A stretch of DNA of 64,000 bases from an uncultured Acidobacteriota bacterium. GTDB lineage: Bacteria; Acidobacteriota; Thermoanaerobaculia; Gp7-AA8. The notes under the pieces were generated by a model. That model saw only the letters and a program-made list of their open reading frames with translations, was not told the DNA's origin and made no database searches. The position numbers and the translations under genes were made by a program. The stretch's first letter is position 1. Every line of letters starts with the position of its first letter. Below, piece after piece: positions 8,390 to 26,120 of the stretch. The stretch covers positions 672,001 through 736,000 of the forward strand of contig CAWGHO010000001.1 of NCBI GenBank assembly GCA_963822445.1, read 5' to 3'.

Positions 8390-8880
8390 AACGAATCCAT
8401 TACCTGCTCATAACCGCCGCGATCATCATTCTCGACATCTGGACGAAGGCGCTGGTCCTCCGGCGCATCGACCTGCATGAAGCCATTCCGGTCATCCCGA
8501 ACTTCTTCCAGCTGGTCCACGTGCGCAATACCGGCGCGGCGTTCGGAATCGGCGCGAATGCAGCGTCGAAGATCGTGCCGCTGCTGCTCAACATCGGGGC
8601 GCTGGCGGTGTTCGGAGTGGTGGTCGTGTACGCGCTCCGCTCGTCAGTCACGGACCGCGTCCTCCAGACCGGCCTCCACCTGATCCTTGGCGGCGCGGTC
8701 GGCAACCTCCTCGATCGTTTCCGCTTCGGCTACGTCGTCGATTTCCTCGACGTGTACATCGGCCGCCATCACTGGCCGGCGTTCAACGTCGCCGATTCCG
8801 CGATCTGCATCGGCATTGCCCTGCTTTTCTTCGACATGAAGAAGAAGCCGGAGAGCGAGACGGAAACGGCAACAGCTTAG
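8386..8880 (+). CDS. lspA: Lipoprotein signal peptidase II
   Basis: [34 protein letters not shown] motifs. Confidence 0.97.
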
Positions 8881-9530
8881 ACCGCGATCTCTTTCACGTC
8901 GCCAATCTTCAGCCGCGGCCCGGTCATCTCCTGAACCTGTTCCGGCGTGACCCCCGGCGCGACTTCGATGAGCTCCAGGCCGTCGCTGGTTACGTCGATC
9001 ACCGCGTAGTCGGTGATGATGCGATTCACCACCTGCACTCCGGTGAGGGGCAGATTGCACTGCTCGAGGATCTTCTTCTCCCCCTTCTTGGTGACGTGCT
9101 CCATGGTGACGATCAACCGCCGCGCGCCGGCCACGAGGTCCATCGCCCCGCCCATGCCCTTGACCATCGCGCCCGGCACCATCCAGTTGGCGATGTCCCC
9201 CTTCGCCGAGACCTGCATCGCCCCGAGAATCGACAGATCGACTTTCCCGCCACGGATCATCCCGAAGGAATCCGCGCTCGAGAAAAACGACGCGCCGGCC
9301 AGCGTGGTCACAGTCTGCTTCCCGGCATTGATGAGATCCGGATCGACCTCTTCCTCGCGCGGAAACGGTCCGAGCCCAAGGATGCCGTTCTCGGACTGAA
9401 GGATGACTTCCATACCTTCAGGGATGTTGTTCGCCACCAGCGTCGGCATGCCGATGCCAAGGTTGACGTAGTACCCGTCGCGAAGCTCGCGTGCGGCGCG
9501 GCGGATGATTTGCTCTCTCGTTAATGGCAC
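8877..9530 (-). CDS. scoB: 3-oxoacid CoA-transferase subunit B
   Basis: [30 protein letters not shown]. Confidence 0.95.
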
Positions 9531-9550
9531 GTTCTTGCCTCTTGGCGTGA

Positions 9551-9583
9551 AGTCGTTAGTCGTTAGTGGTTAGTCGTTAGTAG
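9551..9583. repeat. Heptamer tandem repeat (AGTCGTT)n, left arm flanking the four-helix-bundle gene
   Basis: agtcgtt agtcgtt agtggtt agtcgtt agtag. Confidence 0.85.
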
Positions 9584-9950
9584 GTTTGCGCGGTGCGCGA
9601 TGTTCGGTTGATTGCATCAAACCGTTGATGATTCGGCCGACCTCGTCGGCGCGAGCGGTCGCCGCCCGTATGGCAGCCGGCTCGGCCATCTTCAGTCGCG
9701 TTGCGAGAATCAACTGTGTTTGCAACTCGTGGAGAGAGCCTCGCGCCTGCGCGAGAAAGTGCTGTGTGTCCTTGTTTGTCTGCCTTCCATAGCCTTCCGC
9801 GATGTTAGACGGTATCGACACCGCGCTACGCCGCAATTGAGCCGTCAACCCGTACCTCTCGTCGGCGGGAAAGTCGCGCGTAACCGCGTAAATCTCCTCG
9901 ACGAGATCCATCGCTTTCTGCCAGGCGATCAAATCGCGAAACGAGTCCAT
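9570..9950 (-). CDS. Four-helix-bundle protein (23S rRNA IVP / TIGR02436-like family)
   Basis: FRDLIAWQKAMDL...FPADERYGLTAQLRRSAVSIPSNIAEG...ARGSLHELQTQL. Confidence 0.93.
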   Translation of the reverse strand: MDSFRDLIAWQKAMDLVEEIYAVTRDFPADERYGLTAQLRRSAVSIPSNIAEGYGRQTNKDTQHFLAQARGSLHELQTQLILATRLKMAEPAAIRAATARADEVGRIINGLMQSTEHRAPRKPTND

Positions 9951-9954
9951 CGTC

Positions 9955-9990
9955 CTACTAACGACTAACGACTAGCCACTAACGACTAAC
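9955..9990. repeat. Heptamer tandem repeat (AACGACT)n, inverted relative to 9551-9583
   Basis: ctact aacgact aacgact agccact aacgact aac. Confidence 0.85.
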
Positions 9991-10671
9991 CGTCCTCTGC
10001 TCAATCCTCTTCACCCGCTCCGCCACAATCATCCGATGCACAAAGATCCCCGGCGTGTGGATGCAATCGGGATCGAGCGCGCCGGGCTCCACGAGCTCTT
10101 CGACTTCTGCGATGCAGACCCTTCCCGCCGTGGCGGCCATGGGATTGAAGTTGCGGGCGCTCTTGCGGTAGACGAGATTGCCGAGGCGGTCGCCGCGCCA
10201 GGCGGCGACGAGGGAGAAGTCGCCGACGATGCCGCGCTCCATCACGTACTGGCGGCCGTCGAACTCGCGGGTCTCCTTCCCTTCCGCGACCACCGTGCCG
10301 ACGCCGGCCGGTGTATAGAACGCCGGGATGCCCGCCCCGCCGGCGCGCATGCGCTCGGCCAGCGTTCCCTGCGGCGCAAACTCCACCTCCAGCTCGCCGG
10401 CGAGGAACTGCCGCTCGAACTCCGCGTTCTCGCCGACGTACGACGAGACCATCTTGCGGATCTGGCGCGTCTGCAGGAGCAGGCCCAGTCCCCAGTCATC
10501 GACGCCGGCGTTGTTGGAGACGCAGGTCAGGCCCTTCACGCCCTTCTTCACCAGCGCGTTGATCAAATTTTCGGGGATGCCGCAGAGGCCGAAACCGCCG
10601 ACGACGAGGGTGGAGTTGTCGCCGATGTCGTGAATCGCTTCATCGGCCGAGGCGATGACTTTGTTGATCAT
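9979..10671 (-). CDS. scoA: 3-oxoacid CoA-transferase subunit A
   Basis: MINKVIAS...[13 protein letters not shown]...SNNAG...SYVGEN...PQGTLAER...[11 protein letters not shown] at 10671 overlaps the upstream stop (ATGA). Confidence 0.95.
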
Positions 10672-12038
10672 TCGGCGCGAGACGATATACCAACCGTCTT
10701 CTCCAGCCACGCCACGGCCCGCTCCGGATGCGGTTTCGTGTCGTTCATCATCAGCCGTTCGCGCGTGAGGATCTGGCAGTTCTTGATCGCCCGCTGTTCC
10801 GCCGTCGAGAATCGGCCGTCCACGGCCTCGGTGCGCGGGAAGCAGGCATTGCGGCGGAGGAAGATCTCGATCGCCATGCGCTCGAGCGCGGTCGTCGATT
10901 CCGCGCCGTCGCGGCGGATCGATTCCAGTGCGGCCGGCGCGATCTGAATCCCGCGCGGCGGGCTCGCCGCGAGCGCGTCCGCGATCCGTTGCGCGCGGGT
11001 GGGCGGCGGCGGCTCCGGTTCGGGTTCGGAAGCGGCGGTCGTCGTCTCCGCCACGGCCGCCGTCTGTGTGGGTTCCGGCGCACTGAGGCCCTTGCGGATC
11101 TCGTTCACGTTGAACGCGATCCACGCCAGCAGCACGATGATCACGACGTCCCGGGCCAGGCGCCAGATCAGTTCGGGTTGCGGAAAAGGGCTTTTCGACG
11201 GGGTCGGTTGCTTTCGCATCTCACTGATCTCCGGTGACGGACGATGCCGGGCTCGGGGCGCGACCGCTCGCGGGCGCGAGCGCCTCTGGCGAAGGGCGAC
11301 GGCCATCTTCCACCCCTCGAGAACGTCGCCGGCCGAGGTGTCGACCATCGACTCGATCTCGGACGGCACGTCCTCCTCCAACTCGGGCGGCGCGGCATTG
11401 GTCAGGATGTATTGGTACCCCGCGCCATTGAACCGGTTCGGCTGCAATTGCGCGATCTCCGGGTCGACGGGACCCAGCAGGTAAAGCCATGGAAGCACGT
11501 CAAGCGTGCCGCGGCTGACCTCCAGCTCGATCGGACGGTCGCCGGGACCGGACGTGCGATAGGCGCGCGCAAGGTGCACCTTCAGGAACGTGCGAAACCG
11601 GTCGTCATGAAGACGGGTCGTCTCGAGGTCGTCGAAGACATCGCGTCCGACCAACCGGGAGGCGTTCTTGTTGGCCCGGTCGAGCAAGTCCGGCAGGCGC
11701 TTCGAATCCGGGAGCTCCGCCCACAGCAGTGGAAGCGTGAGCGGCGGGACGGGCCGATCGGTCCAGACACCCCACAGCTTCCACGCGCCGTAACGCTTCG
11801 CCGAGTCATTGACGACCCAGCCCATCGCGCCGATCACGCGGCCGCCGCCGCCGCTGAACTGATACAGAAAGGGTCCGCCCGCGCCATCGGGCAATCGGGA
11901 CAGCGCGGCGCCGAGGGGCTCGAAGAAGTCGAGGTATTCGCGCAGAGTGACGACCTGGCCGGCGTCATCGACGTAGTCGCCGCGGAGCTCGCGAAACAGC
12001 GGCGTTCCGTTCGCGCGTGCGTCGGCGTCAGGAAGCAT
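10668..12038 (-). CDS. Hypothetical single-pass membrane protein; N-terminus GTPase-associated (GAP1-N)-like, C-terminus peptidoglycan-binding-like
   Basis: 456 aa, coupled to both neighbours. One TM ([13 protein letters not shown]), Pro/Glu linker, tail [17 protein letters not shown] resembling the PG_binding_1 motif. NDSAKRYG only loosely resembles GAP1-N DxxGR. Confidence 0.6.
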
Positions 12039-13344
12039 GTCGCCTCAGGATCTCCAGCAGGAGAAGGTCGCCCCACACCGGCAATCCGTCATCGCCATCG
12101 CGGGCCGCATTCTCCTCGGCGGCGCCCGGCAGGAACTCGATCCCGCACGGAAGCACCGGGAACTGAGGCTCCGCACCGGCTCGCATGGCCTCGCGGATCA
12201 TGGCCGAAAAGTCGCCGCGTCCGGCACCGTCCCATGCCGCGAACAGCGCCGCCGCGAGCCGCATGCACTGCTTCACAAGCGTTTCTCCCACGCCTCCCTT
12301 GAAGAAATAGTAGAGCTCCACCTTGCCGGTCTTGAACCTGGCGTGAAGCGACGTGTAAGCAATCATCATCCGGTACAGCAACCAGGTGAGACTCTCCAGC
12401 AGCTCGAGACGCCCGCTCCAGTTGCGCGTGTCCTGCACCAGACGCTCGATGTCGGATGCGGCGGCGACGAAGCTGCTGTCGATCACATCATCCGCGCCCG
12501 CGACCACGCGGCGAGCCAGCGCCAGCGCGGTCTCGCTGCTTTCGAGAAATTTGAACAGCGCCTGCTCGTCCCGGAGCTGCGCGACGTCGAGGTGCGTCCA
12601 GATGACGCCCTGCCAGGTGCGGCGCGAGTCCGGCCGGTTCGTCAGGTGAGCCGTGAGCTGACCGATGTTCTGGCGCGACAGAGTCGGATCGAACGGCACC
12701 ACGAACATCACCAGGAGCTCCGCGAACGCCATCGACCGGAGGTTGTTGAGGATGTCCAGCACGCGCATGTACTTGTCGGGCGTCGTCGAGCGCTGGTGGA
12801 AGACCTCGCCCTTCACGTCGACGCCCGCGACATCGATGCGATGCCGCCCGAAGGTGAGATCCATCCCGTGCAGAAGGACGGGGACGGCGGTGCGGGGATC
12901 GGGATTGGCGATCGTGTACGGCTCGACGAAGCGGTATGGATCGCGGCTGATCAACGTCGTCGGTTCGGCGACGAGGTACTTCTTCGAGGCCGGATTGAAC
13001 AGGCACTTGAGCCAGGTCGTTTTTCCCGCGGCCGGCAGGCCCGCGGTGATGAGAAGGACCCTCGACTTGGTGTCGCTCAGGAATTGCGGCGGGATCAGAG
13101 ACGAGCACTTGCTGCAGCGGCGGTGCGGGCTCGGCACCGCCGAGCGCTCGAAGGTGGGCTGATCCCATTCCAGGCGCGGCTCGTTGAGCGCAACCGCGGC
13201 GGTGGGCGGCAGGCCGCGGTGCTGTTTCCAGTGCGGACCGACCTGCTGATTCCAGGTGTCGGCCCGTCCGACGGGGACGGGATAGAAGCCGTCCCCTCCG
13301 CAGATCGGACAGATCTGCGCCGTTTTTCTTCCGAAGAGACTCAT
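12028..13344 (-). CDS. Zn-ribbon TRAFAC-like P-loop GTPase
   Basis: CPIC and CSKC, G1 GLPAAGKT, G3 DVKGE, G4-like THLD. Confidence 0.75.
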   Translation of the reverse strand: MSLFGRKTAQICPICGGDGFYPVPVGRADTWNQQVGPHWKQHRGLPPTAAVALNEPRLEWDQPTFERSAVPSPHRRCSKCSSLIPPQFLSDTKSRVLLITAGLPAAGKTTWLKCLFNPASKKYLVAEPTTLISRDPYRFVEPYTIANPDPRTAVPVLLHGMDLTFGRHRIDVAGVDVKGEVFHQRSTTPDKYMRVLDILNNLRSMAFAELLVMFVVPFDPTLSRQNIGQLTAHLTNRPDSRRTWQGVIWTHLDVAQLRDEQALFKFLESSETALALARRVVAGADDVIDSSFVAAASDIERLVQDTRNWSGRLELLESLTWLLYRMMIAYTSLHARFKTGKVELYYFFKGGVGETLVKQCMRLAAALFAAWDGAGRGDFSAMIREAMRAGAEPQFPVLPCGIEFLPGAAEENAARDGDDGLPVWGDLLLLEILRRHAS

Positions 13345-16300
13345 GGTTCCATCAGCCGCAACAGCTCTGCCATGTGATTGTCGATGAATCGCCCGAGTTG
13401 TTCGGTCGCGAATCCTTCCGAGGACCGTTCCGCCACGAACGACAACGTGAGCGCGTTCTTTGCCCGTCCGTCGTCATCGCGGGCAATGATCACCATCAGT
13501 ATCCGCGACGTGGGCCGCTCCGGGTCGATGGTCGCGAGCGTCCCGGTCTTGGCATACACGTCATAGCGGTTTCGCAGCGGCTGCACGCGCGAGCGGATCC
13601 TGATGGCCGTCCCATCCTCGAGCACGCGCCACAGTCCGCGATCGAGTTTCGCCGCCGCCGCGGCCGCCTCTTTGTCGAACGCCGCGGTGCGCGACGCGAG
13701 CGGTTTCGCCGCAGATACCGGGACGATGTGCGCGACGACCGGCTTTCGAATCGCCCATGACGAAAACGCCGCCGCCGCACCGACGTTCGACCAGCGGCTG
13801 GACGCGCCGCCGAGGAGCACGGCGATGAGCTCGCGGGTCCGCGTAATGCGATTCAGGCTCAAATCGACAGCCTCGGGACTCACCACGGCGAGCGGCTCGA
13901 GCGCGTTGCTCGTGCCGAGGTCGTCGGATTCGTCGCCCGACCAGAAGGAAAGGTGACGGCGTCGCAGGTCGCCGTCCGCCGATGGCGCGCCTGTCCTAAC
14001 GCCGAACAGATCGCGCATCAGCGCCGCGACACGCTGTTCGTGGAGGTTCGCGACCTGCAGCGGCTTGTCGCGGGTGTGTCCCGTCGAGTCGGCGAGCGCG
14101 GGATAACGGTTCCAGGGAGTCGCGCTGGCGGTCAGCGATTCGCGATCGCTTCCCGCAGGCCCGCGGCCATCGTCGCCGATTCGATTGCCCTCGCCGCGCG
14201 CGAACCCGAGAAAGCCGAGGCGTGTGTGATAGCGGTTGTCGGAGGCGGCGAGGTACGTGCTGAAGTCGATCCAGCGAGCGCGTGGCGACACCTGCCAGCC
14301 CTTCCCGATTTCCGCGCCGAACAGCTCCTGTTCGTAACAGCGTTTCTTGACGACGCGGTCGCATGGGCCGTTCCGCGTCCACAGCAAGTCGTCGAGTCGC
14401 GGATGCACGATCAGCGCGGCCGTCGCCCAGAACGGCTTTGCGGCCGAGCCGATCTCGATCGCCGCGAGGTTATGGTCGACCGCATGCCGCGACGCGAGCG
14501 GCCGCGGCGTGGTCGCGCTGAGCCAGGAGAACGGCGGATCGCGCTCGATCCACGAGCGGCCGCCCGCGGTGACCGTGCGTGAGCTCCAGTCATCCCGGTC
14601 CGCCGCGCGCGGCCAGGAGCTCATCGCCAGCACCTCGCCCGTCGTTCCTCGAAGAATCGTCATCGCCACGCGCGGCGGCAGCGGCGCCGATGCCCCTTCC
14701 GCGATCAGTTTGCTGAAGCCTTCCCTCCCCGCCCCGTCCACAGTTGCCTGCGTGATCCGCTGCAGATCGGCATCGAGAGTGAGCTCGCTGATCCGCGGCT
14801 CGCGATGGACGCGGAGCAGCGCATCACCCGCGTGTCCCATCCATCCGAGGCCGAGGCGGCGCGCCTCACGCGTGGTCGCGTAGAACCACCGTCCCATCAC
14901 CCAGGCCCGTCCGAGGATTCGAACCGGGCCCTGGCCTCCCCGGATCGACACCGGCGGCAGTTCCTCCTCGCTACGCTCTTCGGCGAACGAGTGAACGATG
15001 TTGTAGTCGGGATTCCCCGTGACTTCGTACGCGATCTCCGCCGCGCCCTCGGCATCCTCTTCGACGCGGCGGATGGCGAAGACGCTCGGCCGCGTGCGCG
15101 CACCGCGATCGATCTCCCGCCGCCAAAGCTCGAACATCCGCGTGTAGTACTCCTCGGGATGCGTGAGGCCGTTGAAGAAGTCGGCCGGCAGCGACTCGCG
15201 GCCACCGTCCATCCGCAGCGCCACCGGAAGTGAGTTGAAGCGGAGCACTTCCGCCTCGAGCAGCGTCGCGCCGCCGGGGCGATCGGTGCAGTCTTCGCCG
15301 TTGCAGTAGCGGATCAGCTTCTTCGCCTCGTCGAAGCGAAGTGTCCCCGCGTCGCGGAGCTCGTCCACGCGGCGCAACAGGCGCGACCAGGTCAGGACGT
15401 CGAACTCGTTCGAGCGGACCGCGCGAATCGAGCCGCGCACGACGAGCACGGTCACGAGGAGAGCCGGGAGCAGCGCCAGCGCGGCATACTCGCGCTTGCC
15501 CAACCTGATCGCGAGTGGAATGGCGAGCGCGAACGCGAGCCAGGCGAAATCGTTCGTTGCCAGCGCGACGATTGCTCCGAGAAGGACGATCGCCGCGAGA
15601 ATGCCGCGCCGCATCAATCGCCGTCGCCGGTGCACGAAATCGGGATCGAAGATGGTCGTGCGCGTGACCGCGGTCTCCGGGAGCATCTCCACCGAATCGG
15701 CGCGAAGGCCGGACGACCAGAGCAGGGCCTGACACATCAGCCCGAGCAGAAGCGCCCAGCGGAGCGCGTCGGAGTTCGACGCAGTGGCCAGCAGCGGCAG
15801 ATTCCGTCCGCTGAACCACAGTTGGGAGACGTTCATCGCCGCATGCACGACTGCCTCGCCGAAAAATGCAGCGGCGATGGCGATCGCCAGGAGGTCGCCG
15901 ATTCGAAGCCGCGAGCGGCGCATCAGCAACAGAACGGCCGGCACGGCGAAGATCGCCAGGAGGAACAGCCCGCCGAAGATCCCATGCTCGGCGGAGATGA
16001 AGAAGGAGTAGACGCTGTCGTACTGGATCGTGTCCTGGCGGATGAACGATTGCGACGCGGGCGCGCGATTGAATCCAAGGCCGTCCCACCCGCCCTTCCG
16101 CACCATGGCCATGTGCTCCCACGCGTGCACGAGGGCATTGCGTACGCTGCCGGCGGTGACCGCCTTCGCGTCGCCTTGCGACGGCGCCTCGAGATCGAGC
16201 AGCCATTCCTGCGCCGCCGAGCCGTACTTCATCACCTCGACGCGGCTGAGAATGTGCTCGGTCATCCCCGGCGCGATCGCATATCCGCCGAGAAGGGCCT

Positions 16301-18620
16301 GGTAGGCGATGGCCACGCCGATCACCAGCACCGCCAGCAATGTGGCCGCGACCCGGAACGCAGGCGTGAGCAGAAGCAGCAATGCCAGCGGGAACCAGAA
16401 CGCGAGCACGGCGTAGATCGAGCCGAAGTCGCCGAGCATGCCGATCATCAGCGCGACCGGAGCAAACACCAGCGCGATGACGGCAGTGATCGAGTCGCCG
16501 TGGGTCGGCTCTGCCTGCGCGGAGCCGTCGCCGTCGAGGACCTGCAGTGCGTCCTCCGTTGCCGCGAGCGGCCGCGCCAGCAGGAGAAGTGCAGGAATCC
16601 CCACCATCCAGAACGGGGCGACGATCTGACGCACGTACTCCGGCGCGATGCGCGCGAGCACCAGCACGACCACCGTGCCGGCCAACCAGATCAGAACCAG
16701 TGGTCTTACTGCCGGCGCACGCAGCGCGGTCGTAACCCGCAGGACGGGTCGCGGCACATGACGCAGCCACTTGTGTGTGGATCGCGGCTGGGACAAGGTA
16801 TCGGCCAGCGTTCGCCAGAAGGTCCGGCCGGCTTCGAAGGTCACGCGATACGGAAGCTGCCAGATGATCGAGAGCGCGCGCAGGACCGTTCCGCCGAACG
16901 CCGCCGCGATCGCAAGCGCCGCCACGACGTAGACCACGAGCAGGAGTCGATCGAAGGGCGACGGCCGGAAAAGCTCCACCAGATTCGGCAGGACCTGCCG
17001 CGGCATGAGCACGAATTCGGCGATCGAGCCTGCCACCAACGCTACGGCGACGCCCGCGGTCACAGCCGCGCTGTGCCGTTCGAATTCGACTCCGGGCCGG
17101 TGATGCAGCCAAAGTCGGATGGCGAGGGTGATGAAGCCGGGCACGATCACCAGCGCCGCGAGCGTGCCGGCCAGCCCTTTGGCAGTCACCTCGTCGATCG
17201 CCGCCGGCGTGAGCAGATAGCGGACGGCGAGCAGCACGCGGATCAACAACACGGTCCAAACGGCGGCGATCACGCCGCCGATGCACCAGAGGTCGCGCAG
17301 CCGGAGGCGATGCATGCGGCCGAAGGCGATCGAAGCGACAAAGCCGGCGAGGATCAGCCACGCCAGTCCGAGCGCGAGCAGCAGCGCGCGCGGCGTCGGC
17401 AGGTCGCGGATGACGGTGATCGTGAGCAGCAGCCCGCGCGCGCGCGCCAGATTCGGCATGAGCAACGGCACGCGGATGCTGGAGAGAGCGCGGTTCGGCT
17501 CGAAGGCGGCGCCGAGCACCCCTTTGGTCCGGACAAAGCGCGGCGCGTCAGGGCCGGCCCGCGGCGTGAGATCGGCGCCGTCGCGAAACCGCGGCAGCCC
17601 GCCTTCAGAAAGCCGCAGCGCCGCGTCGTGCCGGAACTCCGCGGCTCCATGACCGAGCGGGAGAAGAAAGGTGTTCGCGCCGGCGGCGGGCTCGCGCCCG
17701 AACGAGAGCGTGCTCGCGTTCTCCGTGAATGGCGGGAGCGAGGTCGTGCGCGTCCACGGCGGATCGAACGAGAGACGCGGCCGGCCGCCTTCATCCCTCA
17801 GGCGCATGACCAGCCGGCGGCGCGGCCAGAGCACTTCGACGACCGCCGGCTTTCCGTCGCGCAGCGTAACCGGAAGCTCGCGCCACGATTCATCATCCGT
17901 AAGCAATCGCACTTCGTTCTTGTGAGGCCGAAGCACGCGGATCGACGCCGCCCACTCCTCGAGCGCACGCACGTTCGCGAGGTCGAGCTTTCCCTCGCGC
18001 CGCAAATCGTTCAACCGCGACTGGAGCAGCGAGTCGAGCGACCGGGCGCGCGTCGCATGCACTTCAGGCGGATTCATGATGACCATCGGCTCGGCCACCG
18101 GCGTGCGGCTGATGATCAGTTTCCGCCGCCGCAGGAATCCTTTGCGCCGCAGCTCGAGGGAGAACTTGCCGGCCTGCTTCGCGCCGCCGCCGAGGGTGAC
18201 CACGTCGCCGTTCGCGTACGCGCCGTCGACGCGTACGAGCGCCGTTCCGCCACGCGTCCGCAGCCGAAACCCACCACCGCCCGCCCGTTCCACGCGCACC
18301 TCGGGACGGAAACTGCCATTCGGCCAGCCGATGACCGCCGAGTGCTCCGCACCACCGATGGCGATGGTTCCCGACTCAGGGTCGGCGCTTTCGGCAGCGG
18401 TCCATGCGATCTGTGTCGACCGCGGCCACTCGGCCACCGACACCAGCGGCCAGAGCGTGAATGGCACCGCCGCGAGCGTCGCGACGAGAATCACGACGAA
18501 AGGCGCGATGTGACGACGGTTACCGAGCGACGGAAGGGCCTCTTCCCGATGCCGCAGTTCGAGCACCCACGCGATGCACACGTACCCCACGAGGCACAGC
18601 GCCAGCATCGGAATGGTCAT
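13341..18620 (-). CDS. 1759-aa fusion: extended N-terminus + FtsW/RodA (SEDS)-like membrane domain + penicillin-binding transpeptidase
   Basis: SEDS-like motifs GDFGS, GGWDGLG, QYDSVYSFFISAEHG, GRNLPLL. PBP motifs LTLDADLQ, TGEVLAMSSWP, SAAK (SxxK), SDN (SxN), KTGT. Confidence 0.82.
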   Translation of the reverse strand: MTIPMLALCLVGYVCIAWVLELRHREEALPSLGNRRHIAPFVVILVATLAAVPFTLWPLVSVAEWPRSTQIAWTAAESADPESGTIAIGGAEHSAVIGWPNGSFRPEVRVERAGGGGFRLRTRGGTALVRVDGAYANGDVVTLGGGAKQAGKFSLELRRKGFLRRRKLIISRTPVAEPMVIMNPPEVHATRARSLDSLLQSRLNDLRREGKLDLANVRALEEWAASIRVLRPHKNEVRLLTDDESWRELPVTLRDGKPAVVEVLWPRRRLVMRLRDEGGRPRLSFDPPWTRTTSLPPFTENASTLSFGREPAAGANTFLLPLGHGAAEFRHDAALRLSEGGLPRFRDGADLTPRAGPDAPRFVRTKGVLGAAFEPNRALSSIRVPLLMPNLARARGLLLTITVIRDLPTPRALLLALGLAWLILAGFVASIAFGRMHRLRLRDLWCIGGVIAAVWTVLLIRVLLAVRYLLTPAAIDEVTAKGLAGTLAALVIVPGFITLAIRLWLHHRPGVEFERHSAAVTAGVAVALVAGSIAEFVLMPRQVLPNLVELFRPSPFDRLLLVVYVVAALAIAAAFGGTVLRALSIIWQLPYRVTFEAGRTFWRTLADTLSQPRSTHKWLRHVPRPVLRVTTALRAPAVRPLVLIWLAGTVVVLVLARIAPEYVRQIVAPFWMVGIPALLLLARPLAATEDALQVLDGDGSAQAEPTHGDSITAVIALVFAPVALMIGMLGDFGSIYAVLAFWFPLALLLLLTPAFRVAATLLAVLVIGVAIAYQALLGGYAIAPGMTEHILSRVEVMKYGSAAQEWLLDLEAPSQGDAKAVTAGSVRNALVHAWEHMAMVRKGGWDGLGFNRAPASQSFIRQDTIQYDSVYSFFISAEHGIFGGLFLLAIFAVPAVLLLMRRSRLRIGDLLAIAIAAAFFGEAVVHAAMNVSQLWFSGRNLPLLATASNSDALRWALLLGLMCQALLWSSGLRADSVEMLPETAVTRTTIFDPDFVHRRRRLMRRGILAAIVLLGAIVALATNDFAWLAFALAIPLAIRLGKREYAALALLPALLVTVLVVRGSIRAVRSNEFDVLTWSRLLRRVDELRDAGTLRFDEAKKLIRYCNGEDCTDRPGGATLLEAEVLRFNSLPVALRMDGGRESLPADFFNGLTHPEEYYTRMFELWRREIDRGARTRPSVFAIRRVEEDAEGAAEIAYEVTGNPDYNIVHSFAEERSEEELPPVSIRGGQGPVRILGRAWVMGRWFYATTREARRLGLGWMGHAGDALLRVHREPRISELTLDADLQRITQATVDGAGREGFSKLIAEGASAPLPPRVAMTILRGTTGEVLAMSSWPRAADRDDWSSRTVTAGGRSWIERDPPFSWLSATTPRPLASRHAVDHNLAAIEIGSAAKPFWATAALIVHPRLDDLLWTRNGPCDRVVKKRCYEQELFGAEIGKGWQVSPRARWIDFSTYLAASDNRYHTRLGFLGFARGEGNRIGDDGRGPAGSDRESLTASATPWNRYPALADSTGHTRDKPLQVANLHEQRVAALMRDLFGVRTGAPSADGDLRRRHLSFWSGDESDDLGTSNALEPLAVVSPEAVDLSLNRITRTRELIAVLLGGASSRWSNVGAAAAFSSWAIRKPVVAHIVPVSAAKPLASRTAAFDKEAAAAAAKLDRGLWRVLEDGTAIRIRSRVQPLRNRYDVYAKTGTLATIDPERPTSRILMVIIARDDDGRAKNALTLSFVAERSSEGFATEQLGRFIDNHMAELLRLMEP

Positions 18621-18720
18621 GCGTACATCTGGCGCTTACACGCTCCCTGCCATCAGACGTTCTTACGGACAGCAGGTAAAACGGTTTGAGCTGAGGATCG
18701 CCGCGCTCGTCACGCGCTGG

Positions 18721-19185
18721 TCATTTGCCTTCGCGGAGCAGTACCCGCGCATCATCGAGCGTGTTGTCGATGGCTTCCTGACTGCGCACGAGGTCCGTCG
18801 ATGGAGGCGAACCATTGCGCACGGACGCGTCGAGCTCGCCGACCAGGTTGCGCAGATCGCGCATCGCTCCCTGCGTCTTCAGGCACGACTCGTTTTCACA
18901 CGTACACGCCGAATCAGCCTCGGAAATCCGCTGGTCGATGTCGGTCTTGAACCTGCTCCAGGCTTCGATGTCGTACGGCGGGTTCACGAAGCGCCCCAGA
19001 CCGTTGCCCCAGGCATTCGACGCAGCCGTTGCGCGGCCGACGCAGGAGTCGTCCGCGCGCGAATCAATGCTCGTCGCGGCGGACTTCGTGCTCAGGCGGC
19101 CCTTGATCCGCGGCGCGAGCTCCTTCCAGCCAAAGACGAGCAAGGCCAGGATGACCACCCACTTCACCAGCTTCCCAATTTCCAT
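18721..19185 (-). CDS. Hypothetical membrane-anchored helical protein with 4 Cys
   Basis: MEIGKLVKWVVILALLVFGW N-terminal TM; helical remainder. Confidence 0.65.
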   Translation of the reverse strand: MEIGKLVKWVVILALLVFGWKELAPRIKGRLSTKSAATSIDSRADDSCVGRATAASNAWGNGLGRFVNPPYDIEAWSRFKTDIDQRISEADSACTCENESCLKTQGAMRDLRNLVGELDASVRNGSPPSTDLVRSQEAIDNTLDDARVLLREGK

Positions 19186-19526
19186 GGCAATGAGTATGCG
19201 CGCGATCCTGACCGCCGGCCACTCCGCCACGGCCCGAGGACGAACGGAATCGCCTTGACGCCTTTCCAGACGGGTAGTCCGTACGCCGTCGGATCGATTG
19301 CAGAAAAGCAAGAATTTAGAAAGGAGGCAAAAACTCACCCCTTTTCCCAGTTTGTGAGGCGTGAGCTCGCATGACGAAGGCGTTGATCTGTTCTCGCGTC
19401 GCGAGTTGAAGTGAGTGTTCTTGCTCGAAGCAAGTGATGTGGCCGTAGCCTTAAAGTCAAAATCCCGGAGACGCCTTCGTGTTTGGTGTCGGGATGCCGG
19501 AAGTGTAGCTCCTCGGCGGACTTTTC

Positions 19527-19552
19527 TTGGTTTCGGCTACGCCGAGGTAGGG
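19527..19552 (+). promoter_or_regulatory. 26-bp upstream motif, copy 1 (candidate operator)
   Basis: TTGGTTTCGGCTACGCCGAGGTAGGG, identical to 22858-22883. Contains CTAC-N6-GTAG palindrome; about 55 bp before ATG 19607. Confidence 0.65.
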
Positions 19553-19606
19553 AAATTGCCCGCCGATGCACCCCTACACAGGGGGATACCTCTGCGAGAG
19601 GTACGC

Positions 19607-20452
19607 ATGACGCAGACTCACCACGTCGTTCAGGTTCTCGGTGCCGCGCACGGACGCAAGACGCTGGCACATTGGAATACGGGTTCGGCATCGCGCCTGA
19701 TTGTCTTCGTTCACGGTTTTGGCGGGAAGCCTGACACCACTTGGCCGGATTTCCCCACGCTCCTCCGGCAGAAGGCGGGCCCTCCGCCCTTCGACTACGT
19801 CTTCTTTGGCTACGATGGGTTGCGCAAGCAAGCCACGAACAGCGGGAAGCAGTTTCTTGGATTCCTGGACCACTTTCTCGGTGACCCGGCGGCACTCGTC
19901 AACGCGACGATTCCGTCCCTCGAGAAGCGTAAATCGTTCACCTACGACCGCGTCGTGATCGCCGCGCATTCGCTCGGGGCGGTGGTCACGCGACGGGCGT
20001 TGCTCGATGCGCATGCCCTGCATGCGGCGGGGAAACTCATGCCCTGGCTGCCGACTGTGCGTCTGGTCTTCTTTGCGCCGGCGCACACTGGCGCATACGC
20101 CGCGGGGCTCGTCACCGAAGCACTCACCGATCAACCGTGGTACCTCGCGAAGCTGGCTGGGTATTACGCTCGTTTCCAGAGCCCGCTCCTCGCAGACCTC
20201 AAGGAAGGCTCGCAAGTGTTGCGCGCCCTTGCCGATGACACGGCCAAGATCACCGACCACGTGATGCCCCCACCGCACTATGTGCGCGCACGTGTCCTCC
20301 TCGCGGGGGACGAGATTGTCGTGAACAACACGCGCTTCGGGGTCGACCCGGTGGTGCCGCCGCAAGACGTGCTTCCCTCCAGCCACACCGGAGTCTGCAA
20401 GCCACGACGCATCGACCACGCCGCACTACGGGCCGTCTGGAACGAGCTATGA
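19607..20452 (+). CDS. Alpha/beta-fold hydrolase (DUF676/PGAP1/SesB-like lipase)
   Basis: VFVHGFGG, AHSLG nucleophile elbow, C-terminal HTGVCKP. GAGG RBS before ATG 19607. Confidence 0.8.
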   Translation: MTQTHHVVQVLGAAHGRKTLAHWNTGSASRLIVFVHGFGGKPDTTWPDFPTLLRQKAGPPPFDYVFFGYDGLRKQATNSGKQFLGFLDHFLGDPAALVNATIPSLEKRKSFTYDRVVIAAHSLGAVVTRRALLDAHALHAAGKLMPWLPTVRLVFFAPAHTGAYAAGLVTEALTDQPWYLAKLAGYYARFQSPLLADLKEGSQVLRALADDTAKITDHVMPPPHYVRARVLLAGDEIVVNNTRFGVDPVVPPQDVLPSSHTGVCKPRRIDHAALRAVWNEL

Positions 20453-22485
20453 CGATCAAGGACGACAACCTCCGGGCGATCGATCACCACTACCTGACCG
20501 CTCGCGAACGCAGGGCTCAGCGGTTCCTAGCCACGGCCAGTCCAACGGCGCGGGCGCGAACGTTGGAGAGTCACCTCCTGCGCGAGCCGAGTCAGAGGGC
20601 GCAAGGTCTGCGAGACGATGTCGACTGCCTTCTCCGCTACTACAGCGTGCTCGAGCTGGCTTCCATCACCGGAGCGATTCCTGAGCTTCCCATTGCGACG
20701 CGCGAGATCGCACTCCGGAACCTCAACGATGAGTACCTCCGCCGGTACTATGAGCGGTATTACCCGCAACTGCTGCCCCAGCTTCTCCGTGCGCGTGTCA
20801 GTGGCGACAAGGTTCTCGGGGTTGACGAGGATTGCACAGAAGACTTTCTGCGGTTTGTGACGCTCGATGCGTCGCGCGACGACGACGACCTTGAGACGTT
20901 CCTGGGGTTTTTGGACGATTACGCGTACGTGATCGATGAGGAGACCCATGACCTGAGCAGCGTGGTGCGCACGATTGCGCACCCCAAGCGCTTCCTCGCT
21001 GCCCTGAGCGTCGACGACGAGGACCGGACGCCAACCGATGAGGGGGTGGTGGGCTTCCTCAGGTTTCTCTCGTTCTCTCGCGACCTCGAGCACCTCCTTC
21101 GCCAGGTCGACAGTCCCTTGGTTCGATCCTGCATCTGGCACTACTACGGGTACTGGTATCAGGAATTGGGCGGGCAAGTGCTTGGTGCACTGCTGACAGG
21201 CATCCACATCCTGGGCGGGTATGTTCCACGATCCGCCACAAACGCAGCGGAAGAGAGGGCGCTCGCGCGCACGCATGCAGATATGGCCGCTGCCGCAGCC
21301 TCGCTCCAGCGACTCACGTCGAGCGTGTACCGCGTGCACTTGGAAGAGGAGATCGATGGCGTTCTGTACCTCCGCATCATGGAGGACGCAGACGCAGGGT
21401 CCGCAGAGGCTCGAGCAGAGCCCGCGGAAGCGAACGAGAGAGCCCAAGCACAGAAGGTCCCCGTCGCCGAGCGGGAGAAGGTCTACAACGAGTTCAAGGA
21501 CAAGATGGGCGAGCTCGAACATGGTTACGTCAAGCGCTTGGAACGCGGCGACATGATCGTCGACCTCAACGGCAAAACCGAAGGGATCATCCCGCGGCAC
21601 CATCAGTCGCGCGCCGAGCGCTACTCGCAGGGCGACCCCATCAAGGCCGTCATCGTCGACGTGCACATGCAGGCGAAGGGACCGCAGGTCGTGCTTTCGC
21701 GCACCGATCCGCGCCTGCTCATTAAGCTGTTCGAAATGGAAGTTCCGGAGATCTACGACGGCACGGTGGTCATCAAGGGCGCGGTGCGCGAGCCGGGTGA
21801 GCGCGCGAAGATCGCGGTCATGTCCCGCGAGCGCGACATCGATCCGGTCGGCGCCTGCGTGGGCAAGAAGGGCTCGCGCGTGCAGTCCATCATCCGCGAG
21901 TTGGGCGGCGAGAAGATCGACATCATCCCCTGGCACGAAGACATCGTGAACTACGCGCAGACCGCGCTCGCTCCGGCGAAGATCAACCGCGTCTCGGTGA
22001 CCAGCGACGAGCAGGCGGACCGTCCGCACCTCGACGTCATCGTCGACAACGATCAGCTCTCGCCGGCCATCGGCAAGCGCGGCCTGAACGTGCGTCTGGC
22101 GGCGGAACTGATCGGCGCGAAGATCGCCATCAAGTCCGAGGAAGAAGTTAAGGGCGAGGTCGCCGACGCGCTCGCGGCCATGCTGCAGGAAGCTATGGCG
22201 GAGTCCCGCTCGCAGACCACCGTGGGCGAGATCGAGAACATGCCGAATGAGTGGGCGCAGCTCCTCGAGGACGCCGGCTACGACGACCTCGACTCGCTCA
22301 TCAACGCCTCCGTGGAAGATCTGATCACCATCGAAGGCGTGGACGAAGACATGGCCGTGCAGATGATCGAGCGGGCCCGCAAGCACGAGCAGGTCGAAGA
22401 GACCGGGCTCGACGAGGAGACTGAAGACACCGCCGAAGCAGCCAGCGAGCAATTCGAGGAGCAAGAAGTCGACAACGAGGCATAA
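20449..22485 (+). CDS. nusA: Fusion of an unknown ~330-aa helical domain to NusA S1-KH1-KH2-acidic tail (NusA N-terminal domain missing)
   Basis: From about 21450: AEREKVYNEFKDKMGEL, VVLSRTDP, LFEMEVPEIYDG, REPGERAKIAV, IDPVGACVG..GSRVQ, EKIDII, AIGKRGLNVRLA. No rimP or infB neighbours. Confidence 0.85.
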   Translation: MTIKDDNLRAIDHHYLTARERRAQRFLATASPTARARTLESHLLREPSQRAQGLRDDVDCLLRYYSVLELASITGAIPELPIATREIALRNLNDEYLRRYYERYYPQLLPQLLRARVSGDKVLGVDEDCTEDFLRFVTLDASRDDDDLETFLGFLDDYAYVIDEETHDLSSVVRTIAHPKRFLAALSVDDEDRTPTDEGVVGFLRFLSFSRDLEHLLRQVDSPLVRSCIWHYYGYWYQELGGQVLGALLTGIHILGGYVPRSATNAAEERALARTHADMAAAAASLQRLTSSVYRVHLEEEIDGVLYLRIMEDADAGSAEARAEPAEANERAQAQKVPVAEREKVYNEFKDKMGELEHGYVKRLERGDMIVDLNGKTEGIIPRHHQSRAERYSQGDPIKAVIVDVHMQAKGPQVVLSRTDPRLLIKLFEMEVPEIYDGTVVIKGAVREPGERAKIAVMSRERDIDPVGACVGKKGSRVQSIIRELGGEKIDIIPWHEDIVNYAQTALAPAKINRVSVTSDEQADRPHLDVIVDNDQLSPAIGKRGLNVRLAAELIGAKIAIKSEEEVKGEVADALAAMLQEAMAESRSQTTVGEIENMPNEWAQLLEDAGYDDLDSLINASVEDLITIEGVDEDMAVQMIERARKHEQVEETGLDEETEDTAEAASEQFEEQEVDNEA

Positions 22486-22857
22486 GGACGAAGGTCGCAT
22501 TCTCCGGTTGGAACGAAGTCGGTTCAACGATCCGTGCATCTCGCCTCGCACGCCTGGATCGATGCTCCTGGAAACACACGGTTGTTCACCCTCGCCTTTC
22601 AGCATCGGGAGTGCTGACGCGAGATCTACAAGAGCCTGAATCGGTGCCGGACGAACGCAGGCGTTCGAAAGGCGACAGAGTACTTTGAAGCCCTCTTCGC
22701 AAGGCGTGGCGAGACTGCTTTTCCTGAACGGATCGCGACGGTCGTCGAGGCGAGCGTCGCAGAGGTGATCGATATCCGGGCGCACGGGGCGGTGCTGCTG
22801 TCACCCAGGAGAAGTTGTTAGTCAAGGATCTCCGGTCGCGCGTTCGTTCGTATTTTG

Positions 22858-22883
22858 TTGGTTTCGGCTACGCCGAGGTAGGG
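22858..22883 (+). promoter_or_regulatory. 26-bp upstream motif, copy 2
   Basis: Identical to 19527-19552; about 54 bp before ATG 22937. Confidence 0.65.
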
Positions 22884-22936
22884 GAAAAGTGTTCGTCAGA
22901 CACTCCTAGAACGTAATCGTCCGAAAGAGGTGACCG

Positions 22937-24658
22937 ATGCAGGCCGACCGCACACGTGTGTTGACGATCGTCGCGCAGGATCCGCTGTTCACGTATCCCG
23001 AGGGTCATCCCAAGGAAGGGCGCATCGTCACGGCGCGCATTCGCGTGCCGGCGGAGACACTGGCGGCCGGTCCGCGCGGGTACCGCGTTCACTGCATCGA
23101 CTACGACGCCACGACGAACACCTACTACAACACCAATCTGCCGGACGACGACCGCTTCGACGATCCCGACGACAAGACCATCCTCGGCGATCCGAGCTTT
23201 CACTGCCAGAACGTCTACGCCCTGGTCATGCACACGCTGGCGCGCTTCGAGTTTGCCTTGGGCCGCCGCGTGAGCTGGGGCTTCTACGGCCATCAGCTCA
23301 AGGTGGCGCCGCACGCGTTCGCGGAAGCCAACGCCTTCTACTCCGAAGAAGACCACTCCCTGCTCTTCGGTTACTTCCTTCCCGAAGGGGCGAAACGCCC
23401 GATCTTCACTTCCCTGTCGCACGACGTCGTCGTTCACGAGACCACCCACGCACTGCTCGACGGCCTCCGCACGCGCTACACCGATCCGTCGTCCCCCGAT
23501 CAGGCGGCGTTCCACGAGGGGTTCTCGGACGTCATCGCCCTGCTCTCCGTCTTCTCCTTGCGCGAGGTGCCGGAACTGCTGATCTCGCGGCCGGAGCTCA
23601 AGATCAACAAGCTCAAGGGCGATCTCATCCCGACCGCGCTCCTCACACCGGAGAACCTCCGCCTCGGCATCGGCGGACTCGCGGAAGAAGTGGGCAAGGG
23701 TCTCCTCGGCGTGCGCGCGAACGCGCTTCGCGAGTCGCTTGCCCTGGATCCAGAAACGACCGACATCAACGACTCCGAATTCAATGAACCGCATCGCCGC
23801 GGAGAGGTGTTCGTCGCCGCGATCATGAACGCGTTCATCGAGCTCTGGAGCCACGAGATCGGACGGATCGGCGCGCGCTGGTCGGACAAGGTCGATCGCA
23901 GCAAGGTCGTCGAGGAAGGGGCGCGGCTCGCCGACGTGATGCTCACCTCAGCCATCCGCGCACTCGACTACACCCCGCCGGTGGACCTCGAGTTTTCCGA
24001 CTACTTGAGCGCGTTTCTCACAGCCGATTCAGAGATCCGCACGGATGACCGGATGAATCTGCGCGGAATCGTCAGGAAGAGCTTCGAAGCGTACGGAATC
24101 AAGCCAATCGCCAAAGACGGGGTCTGGGACCACGCGGACAAAGGGCCGCAGACTCTCCGCTATGACCGCACCCATTTCGAGCCGATGCAGAGCGATCCCG
24201 ACGAGGTGTTTCACTGGGTCTGGGAGAACCGCCAGCAGGACTACCTCGGTCTCCTCGACGATGGTTACACCCGTATCCTCTCGGTCAGGCCGTGCACGCG
24301 TGTCGGTCCGGACGGGTTCCTCCTCCGCGAAACGGTCTCCGAGTATCTGCAGGTCCTGAAGATCCGGGCGGGCGACCTGCCCAAGTTCGGGCTGACGAAG
24401 CCCGAGACGATGCCCGGCGAGCAGGAGATTTACCTTTACGGGGGCGGCGCGCTGATCTTCGACGAGTACGGCCGCCTCAAGTACCACGTGTACAACCCGC
24501 TGCACGGCAAGAAGCAGATCGGCCGCGTCGACTACCTGTGGAAGCACGGCTACTACCGCGCCGATCGCTCGCAGCTCGCATTCGCCGGGATGCACCGGAT
24601 GCGCGTGATCGGTGGATTGGCTTTCGGCGAAGCGTCGGACTTGCAGGAGGTGTGGTGA
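22937..24658 (+). CDS. Gluzincin (M4/M36-like) metallopeptidase, no signal peptide
   Basis: ANAFYS, HDVVVHETTHALLDG (HExxH), AFHEGFSD (third ligand), EPHRRG. Confidence 0.85.
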   Translation: MQADRTRVLTIVAQDPLFTYPEGHPKEGRIVTARIRVPAETLAAGPRGYRVHCIDYDATTNTYYNTNLPDDDRFDDPDDKTILGDPSFHCQNVYALVMHTLARFEFALGRRVSWGFYGHQLKVAPHAFAEANAFYSEEDHSLLFGYFLPEGAKRPIFTSLSHDVVVHETTHALLDGLRTRYTDPSSPDQAAFHEGFSDVIALLSVFSLREVPELLISRPELKINKLKGDLIPTALLTPENLRLGIGGLAEEVGKGLLGVRANALRESLALDPETTDINDSEFNEPHRRGEVFVAAIMNAFIELWSHEIGRIGARWSDKVDRSKVVEEGARLADVMLTSAIRALDYTPPVDLEFSDYLSAFLTADSEIRTDDRMNLRGIVRKSFEAYGIKPIAKDGVWDHADKGPQTLRYDRTHFEPMQSDPDEVFHWVWENRQQDYLGLLDDGYTRILSVRPCTRVGPDGFLLRETVSEYLQVLKIRAGDLPKFGLTKPETMPGEQEIYLYGGGALIFDEYGRLKYHVYNPLHGKKQIGRVDYLWKHGYYRADRSQLAFAGMHRMRVIGGLAFGEASDLQEVW

Positions 24659-26120
24659 TGGCGAAACCAACCGCTCTCGACATCCGCGCGTACAACATCG
24701 GCTTCGGAGACTGTTTCCTGCTCACCTTCCGGTACGGCGCGAAGGATCAGCGGCACATGCTCATCGACTTCGGGACGACCCGGAAGCCCGATGACGCCGA
24801 AAAGGATCACGAGCTGCAGATCGCGAAGGACATCGCCGGTGTCACCAGCAACAAGCTCGACGTGGTGGTGGCCACGCACCGGCACAAGGTCACATCAGCG
24901 GTTTCCGGACCCGGAAGAAGCCGGGCGACGACGAGGAGCCGGGCGACGTGATCCGCGAGTGCGCGAAAGACGCCGTGGTGATCATGCCCTGGACCGAGGA
25001 CCCCGAAGCCAAGACGGGCGCAACCGGTCCGAGGAAAAAATCGTTCGTCGACCAGCTCACATCGATGCACTCCTTCGCCGCGTCCGTGGTGCGGGAGATC
25101 GATCAGGACGTGGAAGACAAACTGCTGGCCGACGCGGACATCAACGACCCGACCGAGATCGCCGCCAGCACAGGGCCGAAGCACCGCATGCATCGCGAGG
25201 AGAGCGATGACTCCGAAGGCGGGAACTGGTTCTCGACGAAGACCCTGCGCAAACGAATCGCCTTCATCGGCGAAGACGCGATCAGCAACGTCTCGGCCGT
25301 TCGCAACCTCGTCACCATGAGCAAGAAGGAGAAGCGCCACTACGTCACCTACGACTACAAGCTCGACCTGCGCGCCGCTCTCCCGGGCGTGAAAGTGAGA
25401 GTCCTCGGTCCGCCGAGCGTCGACCAGTGGGAAAACGTGCAGAACCAGAAGGCCAGGAACAAGGATGAGTACTGGCACCTGCAGGAGGACTTCTGGCGGC
25501 GCCTCGCGCTCAGCTCGAACCTCGGCGTCAGCGACGGACGGGCCAAGCCGCTCTTCCCGCGCGCTCCCCAATGCGAGCCGGAAGAGCGCTGTTCGCACCG
25601 GAAAGCCTGCTCGCAGATCCCGCGCGCCAGCGAGTGGTTCGTGCGGCGGCTGCGCGGCGTGCGGGCCAAGCAACTCATGCAGCTCGTGCTGTCGATGGAC
25701 AGCGCCATGAACAACACCAGCGTCATCCTGCTCATCGAGGTCGGCGGCAAGAAGCTGTTGTTCCCTGGCGACGCGCAGTGGGAGAACTGGGAGTACGCGC
25801 TGGTCGGCGACGAGAAGAAAGCCGCGGCCAACCTGAAAGAGCTCGCCGACGTCGACGTCTACAAAGTCGGGCACCACGGCAGTCTCAACGCCACGCCGAA
25901 GAAGCTCTGGAACAACTTCTCCAAGCGGAGCGACAAGCCGAACGCAAAAGGCCGAATGCTCTCGATCATCTCGACGAAAAAAGGCGTGCACGCGCACTCG
26001 CCGCAGACCGCGGTTCCGCGGTCGACGCTGGTCCGCGAGCTGAAGTCGGAGACGAACTACCGCAGCACGGAGCCGGTCAAGCCGAAGGAGCTTTGCCTGG
26101 TGGAGACGATCGACTTATGA
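24658..26120 (+). CDS. MBL-fold (ComEC-like) metallo-hydrolase, split by a 1-bp deletion near 24888
   Basis: YNIGFGDCFLLTF, LIDFG, THRHK[D]HISGF (restored by one base), NNTSVILL, LLFPGDAQ, KVGHHGSLNAT. Confidence 0.82.

Follow-up and report, generated by a model that had tools for sequence, protein, structure and literature searches.

In the lipase-specific foldase (Lif) operons of Pseudomonas and Burkholderia, a lipase gene is followed by the gene of an all-alpha protein of ~320 amino acids (aa) that wraps the enzyme. [quoted passage not shown] Two further reports describe Ronin "decoy immunity", which pairs an HsdMS-like decoy with a small toxin (10.1101/2023.04.06.535777), and PARIS, a sensor-effector complex released by a phage protein (PMC12409349). 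In fungal NLRs, SesB-like effector domains are annotated via DUF676, PGAP1, and Abhydrolase_6 (10.1101/2022.03.16.484565). Here, we analyzed a window of 64,000 nucleotides (nt) from an uncultured Acidobacteriota bacterium (assembly GCA_963822445.1, contig CAWGHO010000001.1, positions 672,001 to 736,000), in which a gene of an alpha/beta hydrolase (P0002) overlaps a second gene (P0003) that joins an unnamed helical domain, the N-domain, to a part derived from nusA.

The hydrolase, the N-domain, and the nusA-derived half of this gene pair are all under selection, and the tail that follows the N-domain varies among relatives. We tentatively read the pair, with a little less than even confidence, as a sensor-effector unit of the conflict or defense type that uses the captured host domain as its bait.

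The fusion gene and its nusA-derived half

The module comprises the following features, all on the + strand.

19607..20452: alpha/beta serine hydrolase P0002, 281 aa, the likely effector enzyme; start fixed by homologues beginning MTQTHH
20449..22485: fusion gene P0003, 678 aa, overlapping the hydrolase stop by ATGA
20449..21408: N-domain, aa 1-320, all-alpha, unnamed family, predicted hydrolase binder (AlphaFold2 (AF2) model, family search, complex model)
21409..21459: acidic, Ala-rich linker and junction to nusA-derived DNA, aa 321-337 (alignments with canonical nusA and sister fusions)
21460..22482: NusA-derived part, aa 338-678 (TIGR01953, Pfam, BLASTP)
21505-21687: S1 domain, aa 353-413 (Pfam)
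21793-21996: KH1 (KH_5), aa 449-516 (Pfam)
22045-22143: KH2 (KH_NusA_C), aa 533-561 (Pfam)
22258-22383: helix-hairpin-helix (HhH)/AR repeat (HHH_5), aa 604-645 (Pfam)
22396-22482: acidic tail

P0003 is not a NusA orthologue. It shares with canonical NusA the S1, KH1, and KH2 core, one HhH/AR repeat, and the GXXG motifs, both of which are retained (GKKG and GKRG); however, it has no NusA_N, lies outside rimP-nusA-infB, and carries the core behind a 320-aa foreign domain. Positions 110-339 of the 340 in the NusA model TIGR01953 corresponded to residues 332-565 of P0003 (E 2.6e-83). The RNA polymerase (RNAP)-binding NusA_N (PF08529) was not found in P0003 by Pfam or NCBIfam, whereas the sister fusions P0011 and P0031 have it, and residues 1-335 matched no family in these two collections. 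A previous sequence-only reading of the window had described an unrecognized helical domain running in frame into a NusA S1-KH-KH-acidic tail, and Pfam, TIGR01953, and AF2 agree with that description. It had also placed the gene outside the nusA operon and in ATGA overlap with the hydrolase; the four letters at 20449-20452 indeed hold both the hydrolase stop and the start of the fusion gene, and the resident canonical nusA (520 aa) was found between rimP and infB on contig C3.

The fused half was 87% identical in aa to the resident NusA (282/324, in a BLASTP alignment beginning at aa 326). Homology to nusA DNA starts at ~21456-21460, close to the junction near 21450 that had been read from the letters. 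The richness of the NusA half in GC-ending codons was likewise borne out: GC content at third codon positions (GC3) was 0.745 in the N-half, 0.877 in the NusA half, and 0.85-0.89 in canonical nusA, a contrast within P0003 that exists because the two halves differ in origin.

An assembly chimera, in which two unrelated DNA pieces were joined near 21456, has in its favor that the one metagenome run found (X1, 0.10 of words) yielded no read or contig spanning the junction; its short contigs, from many organisms, lay over the conserved NusA part at 21476-22515, and none ran past ~21456 or 22490. We nevertheless consider a chimera hardly credible, as the gene lies inside a 1.58-Mb contig, its reading frame runs through the junction, fusions of the N-domain to NusA occur in independent assemblies, and at the DNA level the NusA half shares just 86.8% identity with the resident nusA. 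Near-identity would be expected after a mis-join with the resident gene, and the 13% divergence of the fused DNA therefore argues against one.

Three relatives also join the N-domain to NusA. A Thermoanaerobaculia metagenome-assembled genome (MAG; locus L040, genome G061) and a metagenome contig (L043, encoding P0011) have N-domains 86% and 82% identical, respectively, to that of P0003, and their near-full NusA tails sit behind a common linker of ~60 aa. P0031 has a NusA tail although its N-domain is just 35% identical to that of P0003; its last 10 residues are presumably translated sequencing adaptor. The P0031 record was probably truncated by the end of a contig, and the complete fusion is likely to be longer.

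For the nusA comparison, we used a 311-codon core from 31 canonical genes of the genus and three fused copies, with two unpublished genomes set aside. The fused copy of this genome had a synonymous divergence (dS) of ~0.19-0.22 and a nonsynonymous to synonymous ratio (dN/dS) of 0.18-0.20, with its canonical sister branches at 0.07-0.08 (three-point estimates). Across fused NusA branches, dN/dS was 0.18-0.24, against 0.07-0.09 on canonical sister branches. At the 247 sites invariant in the 31 canonical NusAs, the fused halves carried 8, 16, and 31 changes, as compared with 0-4 per canonical protein. The 16 changes belong to this genome's fused half and include R-to-P in S1, M-to-K within the GXXG loop of KH1, and L-to-P ahead of the KH2 loop. 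On this codon-level evidence, the fused NusA half is maintained by selection under rules looser than, and different from, those of NusA proper, because a low dN/dS goes together with an excess of changes at invariant sites.

A chance capture without a function of its own, that is, a tolerated fusion heading to decay, would fit that the form without the N-terminal domain (NTD) was seen in this genome only, the constraint on the fused half, which is 2-3x weaker than on canonical nusA, and the decayed modules seen elsewhere (L053 and L054, below). Such a capture is very unlikely, however, given that a branch dN/dS of ~0.2 was sustained over a dS of ~0.2, the frame is open over 678 aa, and three further assemblies hold like fusions, whose N-domains share 35-86% identity with that of P0003. 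The sequence-only reading had allowed for a recent chance capture; on these grounds, together with the position of the fused copy in the nusA tree, such a capture evolving neutrally was rejected.

In topology tests, whose groups were named after the tree had been seen, the fused copy was not sister to the resident nusA, and grouping the two was rejected (approximately unbiased (AU) test, p 0.0018). A single clade of the three closely related fusions was also rejected (AU p 5e-64). The fused copy of G061 was sister to G061's own nusA with a support of 100, and that of L043 formed a long branch beside the G061 pair; a clade of the L043 and G061 fused copies was not rejected (p 0.198). Synonymous divergence between the fusions was similar in the N-domain (0.51-0.71) and the NusA half (0.53-0.59). 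Six positions had changed in two fusions against ~3.5 expected, and these shared substitutions among fused halves were not treated as significant.

The fused half is derived from a nusA of this genus, in line with the capture that had been proposed from the letters. These comparisons suggest that NusA was either captured repeatedly or captured once and then overwritten by gene conversion from the resident nusA, and the form here that lacks the NTD would be either a deletion derivative or a separate capture. When the ~60-aa linker of L040 and P0011 was compared with the DNA upstream of nusA, homology began only from nusA codon ~14-15, and the linker found no match there. A second nusA in genome G018 (L037, G018:C378, 6389-7361) was examined as a paralogue and rejected: it is a piece of nusA at the end of a contig, with infB behind it, and strain mixture is its probable source (assembly contamination 6%).

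A hydrolase-paired family with variable tails

P0002 carries the motif set of serine hydrolases by sequence: a nucleophile elbow (G/A-x-S-x-G), an HG oxyanion motif, and the Asp and His of the triad. The residues H36-G37, S122 (in AHSLGA), D247, and H260 were unchanged across the 13 hydrolase sequences aligned, so that the enzyme, its Ser-Asp-His triad intact, appears to be active. The AF2 model (mean predicted local distance difference test, pLDDT, 84.3) is predicted to have an alpha/beta hydrolase fold; a Foldseek search of the PDB with it gave 203 structures at E<=0.001. Every one of these is a lipase, an esterase, or a cutinase of this fold, with an identity of 11-20% and a template-modeling (TM) score of 0.3-0.47. 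The label "SesB/PGAP1-like" given by the sequence-only reading is only weakly borne out. P0002 itself falls under both Pfam cutoffs (Abhydrolase_6, 25.6 bits vs 26.3; DUF676, 18.4 bits vs 20.3), but many of its relatives have a precomputed PF05057 and one has PF07819. The family counts 512 members of like length with generic automatic names and precomputed Pfam assignments to PF12697 and PF05057. The GC3 of the hydrolase gene was 0.759, and a dN/dS of 0.08-0.14 among the four closest modules indicates purifying selection on it.

The N-domain belongs to a family of 486 representative clusters at E<=0.001 (362 at E<=1e-10) in an exhaustive profile-free search, most members being 300-340 aa long. 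Its AF2 model, built from 46 sequences, is all helical with a pLDDT of 93.6 and a predicted TM-score (pTM) of 0.88. Against the PDB, Foldseek gave no match to this model at E<=0.001 (best E 0.26, TM 0.16), and the ESM Atlas gave no usable match for the fold. The conserved motifs are SHLLR, RYYExYYPLLLP, FLWFLDD, WHxHGYW, and LTSxxYR. Among the four closest modules, dN/dS was 0.12-0.30, again indicating purifying selection.

Genomic context was inspected at 17 N-domain loci, drawn from two same-class genomes, three species genomes, and 12 metagenomes, within a family of hundreds of members; the 17 include two near-duplicate pairs and one locus from an unpublished genome (L006). At 15 of the 17, the next gene upstream, on the same strand, encodes a hydrolase homologue, and at the remaining two (L049 and L050) the contig ends before the hydrolase position. 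Across the family loci, the hydrolase stop and the partner start abut or overlap. The coupling to a hydrolase noted in the window thus recurs at these 15 loci, and the pair is a conserved operon.

The complex model of the hydrolase with its partner reached an ipSAE of 0.72 (runs 0.71, 0.72, and 0.79), against 0.00 for the best of three controls. The runs agreed on at least 91% of contacts, with a partner pLDDT of at least 84. Calibration had covered 80 solved complexes, 58 of which reached the mark, and 110 mismatched pairs, two of which did so; these figures hold only roughly here because our own alignments were used. On the hydrolase side, the predicted interface comprises residues 169-192, which are lid-like and poorly ordered in the monomer, residues 41-47 beside the oxyanion loop, and residue 259 beside the catalytic His. 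The complex test thereby supports binding between the two proteins, and the partner is predicted to clamp the hydrolase across its lid and active-site face.

The N-domain was detected in three of 61 relatives, or in two of 35 genus genomes when this genome (G000) is counted, and in three of 401 genomes of a phylum sample, G000 among them; the count for the relatives and that for the phylum each include one unpublished genome. Further matches lay in two MAGs, one of Chthoniobacterales and one of Bryobacteraceae. Module GC3 was below that of its neighbors in the window, L040, L043, L044, and L046, and in the window a low-GC stretch at ~18500-23000 has a GC content of 0.57-0.64 as compared with 0.66-0.72 in the upstream flank. 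On our reading, the module is a rare, patchy, horizontally moving two-gene unit. In L040, a 266-aa tyrosine recombinase with a Phage_integrase-family match (4150-4950, + strand) stands directly upstream of the hydrolase, which hints at mobility of the module. Two metagenome contigs (L053 and L054) hold decayed modules, in which the N-domain gene is split into two open reading frames (ORFs; profile 2-198 and 237-304) and the hydrolase ORF spans just the last third of the enzyme. In L043, the module with the full-NusA fusion has a homologue of Lamassu LmuB (8691-10721, - strand, E 6.6e-119) ~1 kb away on its downstream side.

At the C-terminus, 35 of 155 members carried a tail of at least 60 aa past the family profile, whereas none of the 155 had an N-terminal extension of that size. 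Seventeen tails were recognized, 13 of them as domains of core host proteins. The recognized tails, with their proteins, are listed below.

NusA including its NTD: P0011 and P0031
RNAP alpha C-terminal domain (alpha-CTD): P0033, aligning with residues 255-333 of a solved alpha subunit (E 3.6e-32)
Sigma-70 region 4 (Sigma70_r4): P0046
AAA+ domain of sigma-54 activators (Sigma54_activat): P0043
Receiver (Response_reg): P0013
Receiver plus LuxR-type helix-turn-helix (Response_reg+GerE): P0134
KH plus S1: P0039, P0063, and P0118, the tail of P0063 matching positions 523-688 of 689, the last 166, in the polynucleotide phosphorylase (PNPase) model (E 1e-61)
S1 alone: P0015 and P0029
Whole GroES (Cpn10): P0100, aligning with GroES residues 2-93 of 94
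Bactofilin: P0030
GAF: P0123
Leucine-rich repeat (LRR): P0101
Caspase: P0017 (the gene of locus L047)

Homologues of the N-domain therefore carry swapped C-termini while staying next to the hydrolase, a pattern the sequence-only reading had anticipated as a check, and the alignments make a clear case for repeated domain capture at one position. Within the genus, genome G014 has an N-domain 80% identical to that of P0003 and an unrelated 261-aa tail. Stand-alone genes related to this tail are present in 18 of the 35 genomes of the genus; a recent host capture was rejected for it, as the genus relatives are at most 50% identical and G014 has no second copy. Pfam, NCBIfam, and the Atlas gave no firm name for the G014 tail.

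Under the bait reading, the partner would hold the hydrolase inactive. The captured NusA part would then lure either an invader's factor whose normal object of binding or modification is the real NusA, or an invader's RNA to which NusA binds. Once engaged, the bait would cause a change in the partner that releases or activates the hydrolase, and the freed enzyme might damage a lipid or ester substrate, stopping the cell or the invader. Phages of Escherichia coli target NusA (lambda N), alpha-CTD (T4 ADP-ribosylation), sigma region 4 (T4 AsiA), GroES (T4 gp31), and the degradosome, and the overlap of our tail list with these targets is, as we take it, striking. More tentatively still, this could be a new bacterial immune family working through integrated baits, whose slot collects the virus-attacked hubs NusA, alpha-CTD, sigma-70 region 4, PNPase KH-S1, and GroES.

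The tails could instead be address labels that tether the complex of hydrolase and partner to nascent RNA or to the machinery of transcription or RNA decay, which we regard as unlikely. Twelve of the 17 recognized tails come from transcription or RNA machinery (NusA twice, alpha-CTD, sigma-70 region 4, sigma-54 AAA+, receiver, receiver plus GerE, PNPase-like KH-S1 three times, and S1 twice), as one would expect were fusions to point to functional partners, and in P0003 the S1 domain and both KH GXXG motifs are kept in a NusA half under purifying selection. The hydrolase at such an address would have a regulatory or repair role, for instance the removal of acyl or ester modifications, a detail we find equally doubtful. 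However, the GroES, bactofilin, caspase, LRR, and GAF tails fit no single address, most members are tail-less, the rare and patchy spread is unlike that of a housekeeping regulator, and the fused NusA halves gather changes at canonical-invariant sites.

The tail could also be the output, with a NusA, alpha-CTD, or sigma region 4 fragment acting, upon activation, as a dominant-negative that shuts down transcription, either together with the hydrolase or in its place. The tails are complete and well-preserved domains taken from essential machines, the caspase tail of P0017 (L047) is a typical effector, and the NusA fragment here, missing its NTD, could contact RNA and partners while staying off RNAP. 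Yet the NTD is kept in the sister fusions, and the constant candidate effector is the hydrolase with its invariant triad, so that we rate a tail acting as output as rather improbable.

Several observations weigh against the tails being baits in a defense unit. The absence of a tail in 120 of the 155 members implies that the unit works without bait, 18 of the 35 tails were unmatched in family searches, and the caspase, LRR, GAF, and receiver tails look more like effectors or sensors than baits. The solved folds nearest to P0002 are generic, and the complex of the hydrolase with its partner is known from the model alone. None of the PADLOC models (PADLOC-DB v2) matched the hydrolase or the fusion protein, and searches of phage, plasmid, and IMG/VR collections turned up no N-domain relative. 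The 45 neighbor ORFs at 12 loci were mostly housekeeping genes (ClpA/ClpS, CLC channel, homoserine dehydrogenase), with a clear defense gene beside one locus only and an integrase beside one only. We know of no phage of this lineage that targets NusA.

Flanking sequence in the window

Outside the module, the following features were noted.

19522..19555, + strand: 34-nt promoter-like element, ~50 nt upstream of the hydrolase start
22853-22886: second copy of the 34-nt element, upstream of the next operon (start 22937)
22937-24658: 573-aa protein carrying an HExxH motif, unmatched in Pfam
~24672-26120: metallo-beta-lactamase (MBL)-fold protein
13341-18620, - strand: 1759-aa multi-pass membrane protein, just upstream of the low-GC stretch

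The two copies of the element in the window form a direct repeat and are 94% alike, and they share an identical 26-nt core, for which the chance expectation is 0. The core of the element is TTGGTTTCGGCTACGCCGAGGTAGGG. Genome-wide, four copies were found at <=3 mismatches, each ~40-175 nt upstream of a same-strand gene; the other two are at C3:335334-335359 and C2:2189832-2189857 of G000 (L062 and L063). In L040, L043, and L005, the hydrolase likewise has the core GGTAGGGAAAT upstream of it. Insertion scars (target-site duplication) were tried as an explanation and rejected on the four copies, the similar upstream spacing, and the conservation of the core in other genomes; the spacing and the cross-genome conservation are the reason for calling the element promoter-like. 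Its sequence and placement suggest a shared promoter or operator that co-regulates the hydrolase operon and the next operon. A simple promoter and terminator scan returned nothing above chance, Rfam gave nothing in 18600-23100, and no tRNA genes were found in 8000-32000.

The MBL-fold protein is weakly similar to LmuA, Avs1a, and the MBL associated with defense-associated reverse transcriptases (DRT), with E from 3e-9 to 6e-7. Its N-terminal part lies in another frame (ORF 24292-24951), and the change of frame near 24948 therefore points to a frameshift or a sequencing error. Together with the 573-aa protein, it may form a second accessory two-gene unit.

Significance and comparison with known systems

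In the literature, we found no account of the module, of a NusA paralogue, or of a NusA decoy, in a search that left most subscription journals outside. If the captured domains are baits, the module would give bacteria their first counterpart of the integrated decoys of plants, one made from core transcription, RNA-decay, and chaperone proteins, and the catalogue of tails would be a read-out of phage-targeted host hubs in uncultured soil bacteria, obtained without cultured phages. If they are not, a new all-alpha fold family of 486 clusters, confidently modeled and paired with a hydrolase, still stands, as do the repeated capture at one position and a selected NusA paralogue without the RNAP-binding domain.

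The module resembles the Lif operons in that an alpha/beta hydrolase gene is followed by the gene of a ~320-aa all-alpha partner. In contrast to Lif, the N-domain has no Lif match in Pfam and no PDB match at E<=0.001, and, as read from its sequence, it has no N-terminal hydrophobic anchor or signal peptide; we know of no host-protein tails in Lif.

With the SesB-like domains, the hydrolase and its relatives share Pfam families (PF12697, PF05057, and, in one relative, PF07819), a likeness at the clan level only, with P0002 itself scoring under both cutoffs. A SesB-like domain is an N-terminal part of its NLR, whereas P0002 is a separate gene.

Ronin and PARIS are alike in the logic proposed here, by which a look-alike of a host machine or a sensor keeps its toxic partner in check for as long as no phage factor has bound to it. 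What they mimic is defense machinery (restriction enzymes) and not core transcription or RNA proteins, and they have no sequence or family relation to the module.

As in the integrated decoys of plant NLRs and in the idea proposed for bNACHT11, a minority of a receptor-like family carries host-derived domains at a fixed end, and by sequence the variable host-derived domains of the present family occupy such a fixed position. Unlike those receptors, the module has no NTPase/STAND core (neither P0002 nor P0003 showed an NTPase domain in Pfam or NCBIfam), and its constant part is a new all-alpha domain together with a separate hydrolase. By analogy, the putative way of working of the module comes closest to the idea of integrated decoys in plant NLRs.

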